Of a stretch of DNA of 64,000 bases, positions 6,063 to 11,578 are shown in pieces; the stretch's first letter is position 1; every line of letters begins with the position of its first letter. The notes beneath the pieces are model-generated. The model saw only the letters and a program-made list of their open reading frames with translations, was not told where the DNA came from and did no database searches. The translations under genes and the position numbers were made by a program. Origin of the DNA: Nitrospinaceae bacterium (lineage in GTDB: Bacteria > Nitrospinota > Nitrospinia > Nitrospinales > Nitrospinaceae). Location: assembly GCA_965237905.1 (NCBI GenBank), contig OZ250172.1:1248001-1312000 (forward strand), given 5' to 3'.

Positions 6063-6238
6063 AGTACTCTCGGCAATAAAGAAAACGATTGAATACCCAA
6101 CGGCAACCCGTCCGGGTGGATGGCCGAAGTATCCTGGCAATTCAGTATATTTTAAGCGAAGGCAGGAGTTCTGTCAAAACCAGTGTGCCGCTGGGCGGCA
6201 AAAGGTGACAAAGTGAGGTAAGGTCGTGGGAGGTCGGG

Positions 6239-7372
6239 CTACGCCATTTCACACAGCTTGTCAGGAGAGGAAATCACCGTGGAACTCGGTACATTTTTTT
6301 TCGGGGATTTCTCGGTCGGCTGAGGATACCGGAATACCTTGCCTTCAAAGTTTCGAACCATGATTTCGCGATCGTTATACTCCACCACCGTATCGGGCAA
6401 TAGCCGGACCTTACCACCGCCGCCCGGGGTATCGATCACAAAATAAGGCACACCCATGCCGGAAGTGTGACCCTGCAATCCACGGATGATCTCAAGTCCC
6501 TTTTCAATTCTAGTCCGAAAATGGTCCGTCCCCACCGTCATATCCGCCTGGTACAGGTAATACGGCTTGATGCGAATCTTGAGCAGTTTGTGCACCAGCT
6601 CCTTCATGATCTCCACGTCGTCATTCACCCCTTTGAGCAGAACCGTCTGACTGCCCAGCGGAATACCGGCGTCGGCCATTCGGTTGCAGGCCAGTTCCAC
6701 CTCCGGCGTGATTTCAGCAGGATGATTGAAATGCAGGTTGGCGTAAAGCGGATGAAATTTTTTCAGCATCTCACACAAAGCGGGGGTGACGCGTTCCGGC
6801 AACGTGCCGGGAACACGGGTCCCGATACGGATAATTTCCAGATGCGGTATCTCCCGGAGCGCCCCCAGGATGCGTTCCAACTCCTTGTCGGGCACCAGCA
6901 GAGGATCGCCGCCGGACATGATCACGTCGCGTATCTCCGGATGCTGTGCAATATATTCGATGCCCTGGCGCAAGGTTTCGCGGGTGACGATCCCCGGAAA
7001 ACCGATTTTGCGTTTGCGGGTGCAAAACCGGCAAATGACCGGACACTGATTGTTCAGCATCAACAACACGCGGTCGGGATAGCGGTGGACCAGTTCGGGA
7101 ACGGGCATGTCCTCTTCTTCATTGAGAGGATCGGTATCCAAAGATTCTTCAGCGCTTAAAAAATCATCCAGCTCTTCGGCAGTGGGCACCACCTGCTTCC
7201 ACAAAGGATCGTTCTCTTCCTTGATCTGATTCAGAAAATAAGAATTAATCCGAATCGGGAAAATCTCCGAAACCTTCTGGAGCTTTTCCATGTATTCTTT
7301 GGATCCGGATACAAAGGGCAGGTCTTCCACTTTTACGACACTATCGCTCAGTTGTTTTTGCCAGCGCTCCAT
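6239..7372 (-). CDS. KamA-family radical SAM/PLP 2,3-aminomutase (lysine-type substrate residues)
   Basis: LVHRYPDRVL, CPVICRFC, SGGDPL, RIGTR, HFNHP, QTVLLKGVND, PYYLYQAD, VIDTPGGGGK. Confidence 0.92.
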   Translation of the reverse strand: MERWQKQLSDSVVKVEDLPFVSGSKEYMEKLQKVSEIFPIRINSYFLNQIKEENDPLWKQVVPTAEELDDFLSAEESLDTDPLNEEEDMPVPELVHRYPDRVLLMLNNQCPVICRFCTRKRKIGFPGIVTRETLRQGIEYIAQHPEIRDVIMSGGDPLLVPDKELERILGALREIPHLEIIRIGTRVPGTLPERVTPALCEMLKKFHPLYANLHFNHPAEITPEVELACNRMADAGIPLGSQTVLLKGVNDDVEIMKELVHKLLKIRIKPYYLYQADMTVGTDHFRTRIEKGLEIIRGLQGHTSGMGVPYFVIDTPGGGGKVRLLPDTVVEYNDREIMVRNFEGKVFRYPQPTEKSPKKNVPSSTVISSPDKLCEMA

Positions 7373-7392
7373 ATTGAACCTTTATATGTAAA

Positions 7393-7632
7393 TTAGGATG
7401 AGATGGAATAGGTCTTTTTGAGATGGTCAATGATGTCATACTCGTCGTCGAGCACCACGTCGCCATCGACCAGGACCGGGACAGTGGTTTGACCGGATAC
7501 TTCGTGGACTTCTTTCCTTAAATGGTGAGGCCAGGGGACGTCGATTTTTTCATACTCGATTTTAAGGTTCGCCAAAACTTCCCGCACCATGGCGCAATAA
7601 CCGCATCCGTCAATATTATAAAGTTTCATCAT
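7393..7632 (-). CDS. Glutaredoxin / GST-N-like protein
   Basis: CGYC active site, SGQTTVPVLVDG cis-Pro motif; 79 aa. Confidence 0.88.
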   Translation of the reverse strand: MMKLYNIDGCGYCAMVREVLANLKIEYEKIDVPWPHHLRKEVHEVSGQTTVPVLVDGDVVLDDEYDIIDHLKKTYSISS

Positions 7633-7635
7633 CGT

Positions 7636-9051
7636 TTAAGCTTGGCTCTCCAGCCCGGTCGCACAAGGCACCATGACTGCATCCACCATTCCATGAATTT
7701 TCTTTTTGTCGTGCGGGCACAGGGTAGCCAGAATACCTCCCAGCCGCGCCTGATTCTCCACCACAAAATAATAGGGCGTCAACCGCGCCCGACTCTCCAT
7801 GGTATCCATGGATTGCGTTTTTGAATTCCAGAAAGCGGCTTCGATCCGCTTGCCTTTGTGAAATTCCTGTAAAACATAGGGCTGATACGGAAACTCCGCG
7901 AGCGCCCGATCCAGGGTCTTGCCCCAATCCTCACTCGACACGTCATGCCCCATCACCACCCCCCGGCTCCCCCACGCTTCCGGAGAAAATCCCGAGGGCT
8001 TGATCACCAATTCCCGCTCTTTCTGAGTCAGGGAATACAGGTCCTGCCATTCATTGATAGGATTCCCTTTGATCCTCAAATTGGGAATCACCGCATGGGG
8101 GGGCAACGGACGGTTGTCCAACACCCATGTGTTTGGAATTAGATGAGCCAAGAGCGCAAAGGTTTCAACTCCCAGCGCTTTTTCCCACCAGGAAATGAGC
8201 GCCGGATGGTGCAACAGGGCAAAACTCAGCTTTTCTTCCAGATGCGGCTTGTAGGGCGGGGTAGTCCGAACGCGGCCCTTTTTATTGCTGAACATCAATA
8301 ATTCCACTTTGGGAATGTTTTTCAGATCAAACAACTCATAAAACCGGTACAGCACCTCGATGGGCACCTCCCGTCCCGCATCCATGACAAACAATCCCTC
8401 TTCCTTGAACAGAATCTCGCGCGGATGCACCACATAAACGGGTAAACCCCTCTTTTTCAGAATGTCTCCCAGGAAAACCATTTCGCTCCAGTAATCCCGA
8501 GCCTCATCGGAAACAACAATGGCGGTGGCACACTCTTTCTCTCCGGCGACGGATTCGACCATTTGATAAAACAGCGAAGGAATGCCGCCCTCCGCCGATC
8601 CGATAATTTTCCGGTCGTCCCGGGCATAGAGGTTCATCAATTGCGAAGTGAGTCCGAAGCCCCCGGGCACCGCATCCAGTTCCGTCACAGCAAATCCATC
8701 TTCCTTGACAATCACATCAGGTCGAATGATGCCCGGAAGCTGGGATTTGAACCGCTTCATGCGGCTGTATTCCACCAACTCAGCGGGCTTGCCCCGGTCC
8801 ATGTAGTCGGCCACCCAGGCAGGCACCCTGCCCTTCACACTGTCGAAATACAATTGATTGAGCGCGGAATAAAATTTCAAAAGATGCTGGCCGAGGTCCT
8901 GAAAAAAAGCCGCATCATTGGGAGACAGGTGAAACGGATCGGGAGAAATGCGCCAGGTGTTGTCGCCGTCGTCCGCCTGTGGGGAATACAGGCCGGACTC
9001 CATCAATGAGTTCTGAATATCGGCGCAAATGTGATCGGGGCTGGCAATCAT
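7636..9051 (-). CDS. Circularly permuted ATP-grasp (glutathionylspermidine-synthase-like) amide ligase
   Basis: IRPD...GFAVTELDAVPGG, VLYRFYE, LVIKP...WGSRGV, YVLQEF motifs in the order expected for a permuted ATP-grasp. Confidence 0.7.
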   Translation of the reverse strand: MIASPDHICADIQNSLMESGLYSPQADDGDNTWRISPDPFHLSPNDAAFFQDLGQHLLKFYSALNQLYFDSVKGRVPAWVADYMDRGKPAELVEYSRMKRFKSQLPGIIRPDVIVKEDGFAVTELDAVPGGFGLTSQLMNLYARDDRKIIGSAEGGIPSLFYQMVESVAGEKECATAIVVSDEARDYWSEMVFLGDILKKRGLPVYVVHPREILFKEEGLFVMDAGREVPIEVLYRFYELFDLKNIPKVELLMFSNKKGRVRTTPPYKPHLEEKLSFALLHHPALISWWEKALGVETFALLAHLIPNTWVLDNRPLPPHAVIPNLRIKGNPINEWQDLYSLTQKERELVIKPSGFSPEAWGSRGVVMGHDVSSEDWGKTLDRALAEFPYQPYVLQEFHKGKRIEAAFWNSKTQSMDTMESRARLTPYYFVVENQARLGGILATLCPHDKKKIHGMVDAVMVPCATGLESQA

Positions 9052-9217
9052 AGTTTCAGGTTAACATGAATGAGTCAACGAGTCAGGGGAAACGGGTCTG
9101 TCCTGTCTTATAAGGATGCAGGCTTCGCTATAAAGTTGCAGAAAACGACAACCCTCTTTGCTCACAACACCACTAGCTCCCTCGGGGATAAAACCTTTCA
9201 TGTGCCGTATCAAACAA

Positions 9218-9226
9218 TGCTATAAT
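9218..9226 (+). promoter_or_regulatory. Extended -10 promoter (TGcTATAAT)
   Basis: Consensus TGnTATAAT about 30 nt upstream of GTG 9257. Confidence 0.5.
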
Positions 9227-9256
9227 CCGAGGCATTATAACGTAATTGAGGCCCTC

Positions 9257-9946
9257 GTGAAAAATCCTGACCGGCCCCCGACATCTCTGAAAACCATCGC
9301 GCTGTTCCCCCTGCCCAATTCCATTTTTTATCCCGGCACCGTTCTGCCGCTCCATATTTTTGAGGACCGCTACCGGCAAATGGTGGGCGACGCCATCGAC
9401 TCCGGCCAATGGATCGGCATGGTGCTCCTGCAACCGGGATATGAAGAAGAATACGAAGGATCGCCGGACATCAACCCCGTCGGCTGTGCCGGAAGCCTCG
9501 AACAATGGAACAAACACGACGATGGCAAATACGATATCGTCCTGCGCGGGCAAAGCCGGTTCCGCATCGTCCGCGAAGTGGGGGACACCCTCTACCGCCA
9601 GGCCGAAGTCGAATTGCTAAACAACGTCAGCGATCAACCCATCGACCCTACCGCCGACTTGTACAAACAATTGATCGGGAAATTCCACGCCTTCACCAGT
9701 CAACTGCCGCTCGACAACGCGCAGAAAGTGGAAATGGACATGCAGGATTGTAAAACATTGGGAGAGGCAGTCGACCGCGTCGCCTACTTTTTCGATCAGC
9801 CCTTGAACGACCGGCAACATTTCCTGGAAGAACGGGACGTGATCAAACGCTGCCAGCAAGTCCACGAACTGATCGACCTCAAACAACGCATCGTCCAGCA
9901 GTCCTCCATCTTCTCCAAAAAAGGCATCGACTCCCGTCTCAATTAA
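9257..9946 (+). CDS. Stand-alone Lon protease N-terminal (substrate-binding) domain protein
   Basis: IALFPLP..IFYPGTVLPLHIFEDRYRQMV and G..RFRI motifs; no AAA or protease domain. Start set at GTG 9257. Confidence 0.85.
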   Translation: MKNPDRPPTSLKTIALFPLPNSIFYPGTVLPLHIFEDRYRQMVGDAIDSGQWIGMVLLQPGYEEEYEGSPDINPVGCAGSLEQWNKHDDGKYDIVLRGQSRFRIVREVGDTLYRQAEVELLNNVSDQPIDPTADLYKQLIGKFHAFTSQLPLDNAQKVEMDMQDCKTLGEAVDRVAYFFDQPLNDRQHFLEERDVIKRCQQVHELIDLKQRIVQQSSIFSKKGIDSRLN

Positions 9947-9961: not shown

Positions 9962-11578
9962 TTAAATCCGTCCCGCCATGCCGCCGTAGGCGATGCCGGT
10001 GAGATCGGCCATGTCTTTTTTCCAGGCGGTGAGGTCGCCTGCATTGAACTGGTTGAGGTGAGTGTGACCGCAGGCCCGCGCCAGGACTTTCATCAACTCC
10101 ACCGACGCGTTAAAAAAATTACCGAGCTGTTGGGAGGATTTCTCCATATCCAACCGTTGCCGCAGATGTTCTTTCTGGGTGGCAATGCCCACCGGGCAAT
10201 TGTTGGTATGGCACGCCCGCATGCCGATACAACCGATCGCCTGGATCGCCGCGTTGGAAATGGCAATGGCATCGGCGCCCAGAGCCAGCGCTTTTGCGAA
10301 GTCGGCGGGGACCCGCAGACCACCGGTGATGACCAGCGTGATGTCCTTGCGGTCCAGCCGGTCCAGATAATGCCGCGCGCGTGCCAGGGCCGGAATGGTG
10401 GGAACGGAAATGTTATCGCGAAACAGGAGCGGCGCGGCACCGGTACCCCCGCCGCGTCCGTCCAAAATAATGTAATCGACGCCCACTTCCAACGCCGCGT
10501 CGATGTCGTCTTCAATATGCTGGGCCGACAATTTGTAGCCGATGGGAATCCCACCCGTCGCTTCGCGCACTTCGGCAGCGAATGCCTTGATGGGTTGAAT
10601 GTCTTTCCAGTCCGGAAACCGCGGAGGAGACACCGCTGGTTCGCCTTCTTTGAGACCGCGCACCTGGGCGATCTTACCCTTCACTTTTTCACCCGGCAGG
10701 TGACCGCCGGTTCCGGTCTTCGCGCCCTGCCCGCCCTTGAAGTGAAACGCCTGACACCGTTGAATCTTGTCCATGGAATACCCGAACCGGCCCGACGCCA
10801 GCTCATAAAAATAGCGGCTGTTGGCCGCCTGCTCTTCGGGCAACATCCCGCCTTCGCCACTGCAGATGCCGGTCCCCGCCTGCTCCGCACCCATCGCCAG
10901 TGCCACCTTGGCTTCTTCCGACAACGCACCGAAACTCATGTCCGACACGAATAGCGGAATTTTCAGCGTCAGCGGTTTCTTGGCGTTGGGACCAATGACC
11001 ACTTCCGTGCCTACCGGGTCATCGTCCAACAAAGGCACCGTGGCCAACTGAGCGGTCACAAACTGAATGTCATCCCACAAAGGAAGCTCGTCGCGCGGCA
11101 CCCCCATCGCCGCAACACTGCCGTGATGCCCCAGCTTCGATAACCCCTCTTTCGCCAACTGCTGGATAAAATGGTTGTGCGGCTCTGCATCGGTGCCCCC
11201 GGTATCGGCATACAGCCCGAGATAGGCGTTGCGGTCAAATGGTTGCGGATGCTCTTTTGCCCATTCAGCGATCTCCTCTTCATCCACAAACACGGCTCGG
11301 TTCTCCAACCATGAGGAAAATTTGGGGAGCACTTCTTCGTGGCTGTACTCGCTGACGCCGGTGTCGTACCGGAAATCCCATCTATGAACGCCGCAAATCA
11401 AATTGGTTCCGGACACAAACCCGTCGCTCAACAACGCACCTCGGTGCGGACAGCGGCCATAGAATACGGAAACCTCTTTGTCATACCTGACGATCACCAG
11501 GTCCACATTCGACACCAGCGCATACGCCGGCACCCGGTCTTTAAGAGCGCTCCACTGCGCCACTTCCACTTTTTGCAT
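9962..11578 (-). CDS. Rieske domain fused to FMN-binding glutamate-synthase-family domain
   Basis: N-terminal CPH...CGVH Rieske motif; MSFGALS, SGEGG, GQGAK, DGRGGGTGA, CIGMRACHTNNCPVGIATQ. Confidence 0.9.
   Translation of the reverse strand: MQKVEVAQWSALKDRVPAYALVSNVDLVIVRYDKEVSVFYGRCPHRGALLSDGFVSGTNLICGVHRWDFRYDTGVSEYSHEEVLPKFSSWLENRAVFVDEEEIAEWAKEHPQPFDRNAYLGLYADTGGTDAEPHNHFIQQLAKEGLSKLGHHGSVAAMGVPRDELPLWDDIQFVTAQLATVPLLDDDPVGTEVVIGPNAKKPLTLKIPLFVSDMSFGALSEEAKVALAMGAEQAGTGICSGEGGMLPEEQAANSRYFYELASGRFGYSMDKIQRCQAFHFKGGQGAKTGTGGHLPGEKVKGKIAQVRGLKEGEPAVSPPRFPDWKDIQPIKAFAAEVREATGGIPIGYKLSAQHIEDDIDAALEVGVDYIILDGRGGGTGAAPLLFRDNISVPTIPALARARHYLDRLDRKDITLVITGGLRVPADFAKALALGADAIAISNAAIQAIGCIGMRACHTNNCPVGIATQKEHLRQRLDMEKSSQQLGNFFNASVELMKVLARACGHTHLNQFNAGDLTAWKKDMADLTGIAYGGMAGRI

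Follow-up and report, generated by a model that had tools for sequence, protein, structure and literature searches.

The known uses of beta-lysine lie in fermentation, in an acetylated osmolyte, on elongation factor P (EF-P) and in antibiotics. N-epsilon-acetyl-beta-lysine is the product of the AblA/AblB pathway (TIGR03820 and TIGR03827), and EpmA and EpmB represent a core, single-copy use of beta-lysine on EF-P. Separately, a circularly permuted ATP-grasp fold is shared by YjfC and YgiC (PDB 7UK6, 7UKA) and glutathionylspermidine synthetase (GspS; 2IOA) of Escherichia coli, the GspS-type ligases acylating an amine of a polyamine, and by glutathione and homoglutathione synthetases (2HGS, 8FBZ, 3KAL, 5OES). 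Here we describe a locus of a Nitrospinaceae bacterium in which a ligase predicted to have this fold and a lysine-type KamA aminomutase form a real and conserved module of two enzymes that belong to known classes; the module itself appears not to have been described before. It lies in a stretch of 64,000 nucleotides (contig OZ250172.1 of assembly GCA_965237905.1, positions 1,248,001 to 1,312,000; hereafter the window) of a closed 3.09-Mb Nitrospinales genome that is 96% complete.

The locus resembles AblA/AblB in pairing a lysine 2,3-aminomutase with an enzyme that would acylate beta-lysine, but its partner enzyme is an ATP-grasp ligase rather than a GNAT acetyltransferase, its KamA is about 40-60 residues shorter, and AblB was found in none of five genomes tested, with controls detected. 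The fungal enzyme Cp1B (9CJN) makes a new amide with the same fold, and the blasticidin S pathway pairs a 2,3-aminomutase with an ATP-grasp enzyme (documented in part in PMC11641026); those, however, are secondary-metabolite clusters, whereas here a two-gene core is conserved in 97 of the 102 genomes of an order. The features of the locus are as follows.

7636..9051, minus strand: ligase, 471 amino acids; predicted circularly permuted glutathione synthetase/GspS-type ATP-grasp protein of an unannotated family; core part
7393..7632, minus strand: glutaredoxin/GST-N-like CxxC protein (CGYC), 79 amino acids; accessory part
6239..7372, minus strand: short KamA-family radical S-adenosylmethionine/pyridoxal phosphate (PLP) 2,3-aminomutase of the lysine type, 377 amino acids; core part
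9058..9086, minus strand: sigma-70-like promoter CTGACT-17-TAACCT, with 6 nt between its end and the start codon of the ligase; consensus match only
6149..6200, minus strand: weak stem-loop after kamA, followed by a strong sigma-70-like site, TTGACA-17-TAAAAT, upstream of the gene for DUF502; from a pattern scan

The three genes are co-oriented, with gaps of 3 bp between the ligase and glutaredoxin genes and 20 bp between the latter and kamA, and the CGYC motif and the two aspartate motifs of KamA are present, all as a first-pass annotation of this DNA had read them.

A ligase-aminomutase pair conserved across phyla

The ligase is present throughout Nitrospinales, with one weak match among 18 Nitrospinota genomes outside the order. 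All 27 Nitrospinota loci with downstream sequence, the window included, have the ligase, glutaredoxin and KamA genes in this order (the other three of 30 stop at contig edges), and hence the arrangement is not due to chance. Among 151 Nitrospirota genomes, 63 encode the ligase and 67 KamA; the latter occurs in all 63 ligase-positive genomes, as against four of the 88 ligase-negative ones, and one of those four carries the only EpmA among the 151. The two genes are adjacent in 56 of the 63, and the seven genomes in which they are unlinked, four of them from a separate clade, still have KamA. Likewise, the ligase is found in 75 of 81 Poribacteria genomes, all 75 of which encode KamA, and the only three of the 81 that lack KamA also lack the ligase, even though no KamA gene lies within 6 kb of the ligase in 17 loci from this lineage. 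In a sample of 251 Bacillota genomes around G120, KamA accompanies the ligase in 11 of 11, against a background of 158/251, with five adjacent pairs that lack the glutaredoxin; two further weak ligase matches, members of another family, were not counted. These counts come from related and partly incomplete genomes and stand for few independent evolutionary events. Thus, the core of the cluster is the ligase together with the aminomutase, and their dependence holds even where the genes are unlinked. The trio that the first-pass annotation had presented as an operon co-occurs well beyond this genome.

Nitrospinales and Nitrospirales are the main nitrite oxidizers of oceans, soils and wastewater. 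They keep the module as a core set, though existing annotation calls its ligase no more than hypothetical, and none of the known uses of beta-lysine was found to account for the cluster. No published description of it emerged from a literature search at the level of abstracts that covered few subscription journals; a 2009 amidoligase survey by Iyer and colleagues may mention the ligase family. Defining the product would reveal a new metabolite or modification, assign a function to an orphan family of more than 1,000 clusters at 50% identity and explain the retention of KamA in nitrite oxidizers.

A predicted permuted ATP-grasp ligase

By sequence the ligase is elusive: it matches no Pfam family at an E-value of 0.05, no NCBIfam model and no PDB sequence, and does not reach the Pfam thresholds of CP_ATPgrasp_1/2, GSP_synth (PF03738) or GSH_synth_ATP, while one distant family member scores 19.4 bits on GSP_synth against a threshold of 29.3. 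The family is large, with 5,082 of 8,000 candidates scored and 1,041 clusters at 50% identity, and the nearest named relatives are from Nitrospinaceae (86-91% identity). Among 4,656 candidates, none was a longer, fused form, itself weak evidence.

An AlphaFold2 model (pLDDT 95.9 from 138 sequences) has human glutathione synthetase as its top Foldseek match (E 3.8e-16, TM 0.65). VIA-align recovers 26 entries of the glutathione synthetase (GSS)/GspS type with Z-scores of 21.9-26.5 over 322-419 residues, followed by one at 11.8 and the rest below 9.3. The foremost of these, YjfC (26.5), YgiC (26.0), homoglutathione synthetase (25.9), GspS (25.1) and Cp1B (25.1), are effectively tied, and therefore the fold picks no subfamily. 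The ESM Atlas agrees with a permuted ATP-grasp, its nearest clusters being unnamed and mostly from Verrucomicrobiota or Nitrospirota, and HHalign links the ligase family profile at 98.4% to a Bacillota CP-ATP-grasp protein that adjoins a GCS2 ligase. Two Bacillota genomes (L218, L219, the latter with the protein just named) have a GCS2 ligase directly before the CP-ATP-grasp protein, probably an unannotated GshA/GshB-like pair. Together, these comparisons support the prediction that the 471-residue protein is a full-length, circularly permuted ATP-grasp enzyme of the GSS/GspS type with intact catalytic motifs; the fold that had been proposed from the sequence, invisible to the Pfam, NCBIfam and PDB sequence searches, is thus borne out by structure prediction.

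The RxD, ExN/D, lid lysine and glutamine motifs of GspS-type ligases have counterparts in the window ligase, with R110-x-D112, E124-x-D126, K351 and Q395 aligning with R316, D318, E330, N332, K533 and Q569 of GspS; these are invariant or nearly so, and K274 and G361 of the glycine loop are conserved as well. Yet the ligase is only 10-12% identical to the GspS-type enzymes, has ExD in place of ExN, and differs further in having no amidase domain and no DUF1190 partner in view and in being tied to a lysine aminomutase. According to PMC2845819, Arg267 and Glu214 of human glutathione synthetase bind the gamma-glutamyl moiety and Arg450 binds the glycine carboxylate. In a motif-level mapping, Y235-R236 of the ligase, with S181, E183 and E190, would fall at the gamma-glutamyl-pocket positions, R236 and E183 corresponding to Arg267 and Glu214, so that the gamma-glutamyl arginine would be retained. 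In contrast, the Arg450 position appears to be Thr443, although R421 or R423 might take over the role of that arginine, and the overall identity to glutathione synthetases is 12-15%.

The aminomutase and the glutaredoxin

The best NCBIfam model for the window KamA is TIGR03820, lysine 2,3-aminomutase, at 434 bits; it passes the KamA family model TIGR00238 (304 against 199) and remains well below the EpmB cut-off (246 against 369). Alignment to the lysine 2,3-aminomutase of Clostridium subterminale (2a5h; E 4e-114) places D277 of YQAD and D314 of VIDTP on D293 and D330, and the CxxxCxxC motif, the substrate arginine that follows it and the PLP lysine K321 are retained, while the cysteine at the position of the zinc-site residue C268 is missing. 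All 99 ligase-adjacent KamA copies keep D277, D314 and K321. Adjacent copies fall in two separate lineages in a FastTree phylogeny, and one of them, from Bacillota, exceeds the cut-off for lysine 2,3-aminomutase (547.8 against 525.4 bits). These residues and family scores point to lysine as the probable substrate, and the lysine-type assignment made at first reading from the two aspartates is upheld.

The same genome has a second, divergent KamA-family gene (L002:1426-2592; G000:C1 about 2450300), 34% identical to the first and passing TIGR00238 only, which is found in most Nitrospinales after a Kbl/AONS-like gene. It was rejected as a partner of the ligase, to which it is unlinked, and it has arginine in place of the first aspartate (YQC-R).

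The 79-residue protein is readily recognized as a glutaredoxin (PF00462, E 7e-14, 52.2 bits against 22.9; PF13417, E 1e-13), though it reaches no NCBIfam subfamily cut-off. Its CxxC is kept in all 86 loci with a glutaredoxin match, mostly as CGYC, CPEC or CPDC. In about 22 of the 56 Nitrospirota clusters, however, the gap between ligase and kamA is below 230 bp, too short for a glutaredoxin gene (one ligase end being estimated), and the protein is also absent from the five adjacent Bacillota pairs and the Poribacteria loci. It is probably an auxiliary redox protein that Nitrospinales and Nitrospirales have gained rather than a required step. This weakens the earlier suggestion that the glutaredoxin points to thiol chemistry and regenerates the product, as does the failure to find either a gamma-glutamylcysteine ligase or GshB in the genome.

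A search for known beta-lysine and thiol pathways

No EpmA scores above the cut-off anywhere in the window genome, where the best TIGR00462 match is a full-length lysyl-tRNA synthetase, or in any of five tested ligase-positive genomes, and efp lies about 66 kb from the cluster, in keeping with the earlier remark that efp and epmA are outside the window. Together with the EpmB score, this agrees with the view that this KamA does not serve an EpmA/EF-P system. Lysine 5,6-aminomutase, a marker of fermentation, gave no match in five genomes, but its control was silent too. With regard to thiols, the GshA domains GCS2 and Glu_cys_ligase (PF04107, PF04262) were matched neither in the window genome, with controls detected, nor in three other genomes (G072, G120, G123), and no GshB domain was found in the window genome; for PF08886 the control was silent as well.

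The EF-P of the window genome has the loop PGNK, with asparagine at the tip (L037:1492-2064). An asparagine tip is found in 23 of 32 Nitrospinales EF-Ps (22 TPGNKR and one TPGNLR), the other nine having PGKG. The loop flips between PGNK and PGKG within the order, even within one genus (L037, L371-L398), with no EpmA found. EF-Ps of ligase-negative Nitrospirota (among L225-L294) include MGRG, VGRG and MQQR loops without the conserved proline. In two related Bacillota genomes (L352, L353) the ligase is about 15 kb from efp and not adjacent to it, probably through shared synteny.

Candidate products of the module

That the ligase uses beta-lysine in one form or another we consider probable. The specific reading that we favor, tentatively and at somewhat less than an even chance, is that it would link an amine of beta-lysine with an acyl donor of the gamma-glutamyl type; the product would be a housekeeping amide that carries no thiol and is as yet undescribed. 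KamA probably converts L-lysine to beta-lysine; the ligase would use ATP to activate, as an acyl phosphate, a donor whose head is of the gamma-glutamyl type; and the acyl group would then pass to an amine of beta-lysine. The acyl-phosphate chemistry is suggested by the predicted fold, and the kind of donor by the motif-level match to the gamma-glutamyl pocket; beta-lysine would suit as the amine partner because its 1,4-diaminobutane unit resembles the end of spermidine that GspS and YgiC/YjfC accept. YgiC is described as having peptide-spermidine ligase activity, its physiological substrate being unknown (PMC11762307), and Cp1B as a case of the same fold reused for new amides (PMC12568646).

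Several observations weigh against this reading. The direct profile alignment between the ligase and GspS is weak (21.8% probability), so that the pocket mapping would hold at the level of motifs only, and the 434 bits of the window KamA fall short of the equivalog cut-off of 525.4. Because the genomes counted are related, the numbers go back to few evolutionary events, and incompleteness may account for the three Poribacteria absences. In the distant half of the family, KamA is in view at one of 80 unlabeled metagenome loci, and at one of the 38 with more than 1.5 kb on both sides, that one being of the nitrite-oxidizer type (L195); nonetheless, this distant clade, probably from Verrucomicrobiota, shares the polar conserved residues of the KamA-linked clade. 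Finally, the acid activated by enzymes of the glutathione synthetase type is normally a dipeptide, and the search of the window genome yielded no source of a gamma-glutamyl dipeptide.

Among the alternatives, the roles might be reversed, with beta-lysine as the acyl donor, activated as beta-lysyl phosphate, and a polyamine, an amino sugar or a second beta-lysine as the acceptor. The co-occurrence of ligase and KamA fits this equally, polyamine-accepting YjfC, YgiC and GspS are among the top structural matches, the invariant acidic residues E183, E190, E239, D242, E272 and E273 could hold both amines of beta-lysine, and the aminoacyl parts of nucleoside antibiotics are put in place by ATP-grasp enzymes (PMC11641026). 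Nevertheless, the invariant Arg236, at what would be the head of the donor, suits an alpha-carboxylate better than the diamine tail of beta-lysine, and no gene for a polyamine or other acceptor recurs near the ligase across lineages, which leaves this possibility unlikely. We regard as just as unlikely the placing of beta-lysine on a macromolecule. The target might be the end of a protein or peptide, which is what is suspected for YgiC/YjfC, or a peptide of the cell envelope, or the ligase might take over the role of EpmA on EF-P; the single-copy core gene, its housekeeping-type promoter and the lack of EpmA lend themselves to this view. EF-P as the sole target would be very improbable. In a hand-picked, non-random sample of Nitrospirota, the EF-P tip is lysine in all 26 ligase-positive genomes, compared with 23 of the 44 that lack the ligase; 22 of the 23 asparagine-tip Nitrospinales EF-Ps have lysine at the next position, which is not so in three of three from ligase-negative Nitrospinota; and for about half of EF-Ps no type of modification is known (PMC11388002). 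Against these stand the asparagine at the modified position in most Nitrospinales, the window genome included, a Nitrospinales genome (G034) whose PGNL loop has lysine at neither place while the operon is intact, the retention of PGKG in two of three Poribacteria without ligase and KamA, the distance of efp from the ligase in the sampled loci (L004-L220) and the KamA scores far from EpmB. KamA-type enzymes, moreover, yield (S)-beta-lysine, while EF-P takes the (R) form.

The leading idea of the first-pass annotation was that the cluster makes a new low-molecular-weight thiol recycled by the glutaredoxin; beta-lysyl-cysteine or, by comparison with homoglutathione, gamma-Glu-Cys-beta-Lys would be candidates. 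The fold is no farther from homoglutathione synthetase, an enzyme that accepts a beta-amino acid, than from the others; the glutaredoxin gene lies between the other two in every complete Nitrospinota locus, always with its CxxC; and a genome with no recognized glutathione pathway needs another reductant for its glutaredoxin. We now hold such a thiol to be improbable because no GshA or GshB domain was found and the glutaredoxin is dispensable, and no cysteine or thiol gene recurs nearby; the missing GshA, GshB, EpmA and AblB and the asparagine tip likewise lower the thiol and EF-P readings alike. Of that earlier interpretation, the fold, the lysine-type KamA, the conservation of the cluster and the separation of KamA from an EpmA/EF-P system stand, while the thiol role of the glutaredoxin does not stand as firmly. 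It is also rather unlikely that the two enzymes belong to no common pathway, or that KamA acts on another amino acid, their linkage coming from shared ancestry and co-regulation. The distant clade, which adjoins MarC, ProA or RuvA instead, the window KamA, with no equivalog cut-off passed and no cysteine at the C268 position, and the general frequency of KamA in Bacillota would fit such a view; the adjacency of the ligase to two different KamA lineages, the presence of KamA in all seven Nitrospirota that have the genes apart, although few other members of the phylum encode it, and both lysine-binding aspartates in all adjacent KamAs argue for a shared pathway. A bolder proposal, which we find doubtful, is that the ligase would be the committed step to a core cell component of several phyla, either a glutaredoxin-recycled beta-lysine replacement for glutathione in bacteria without GshA/GshB or an EpmA-independent protein beta-lysylation.

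Transcription signals and neighboring genes

A sigma-70-like site ending 6-10 nt before the ligase start is found in 13 of 37 distinct Nitrospinales upstream regions, as against a mean of 1.75 and a maximum of 5 in 300 shuffles; nine of the 13 have a perfect TTGACA, and the site in the window matches less well, at 4/6. This suggests a leaderless housekeeping transcript for the operon, with a likely end at the stem-loop after kamA, the downstream DUF502 gene being present in few loci only. In two marine-sediment RNA runs, contigs of relatives cover all three genes, one spanning both junctions (word shares 0.05-0.07); they were not used, contigs not being proof of transcription. A plasmid search gave no match.

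Several neighbors were considered and rejected as core parts. In the distant clade these are MarC (57 loci), ProA (33) and RuvA (18), seen in that clade only. DUF2156, YkgJ-like, Dcd, GT2 and DUF2064 genes are neighbors in Nitrospirota only; Nitrospira queries for DUF2156 and YkgJ found neither in the window genome, and dcd lies about 125 kb away. In Nitrospirales, a divergent pair of YkgJ-like (CxxCxxCC) and DUF2156 genes, sometimes fused, is upstream of the ligase (L092:4038-5673, L108:4216-5682). The Nitrospirota KamA gene is usually followed by a dCTP deaminase-like gene, unlinked in Nitrospinales, which is long and has two domains in most lineages but is of a short type in two (L092:8882-10042, L325:8235-8789, L336:5046-5597). 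A stand-alone gene for a Lon substrate-binding domain (window positions 9158-9946), which diverges from the ligase gene at almost every Nitrospinales locus, was set aside since it is linked in this order only. Farther along the window are a gene with a Rieske domain fused to an FMN glutamate-synthase-like domain (9962-11578) and a divergent pair encoding a 241-residue, three-cysteine radical-SAM-like protein and TcmP (TIGR04474; 15471-17505), which resembles a mobile insertion.

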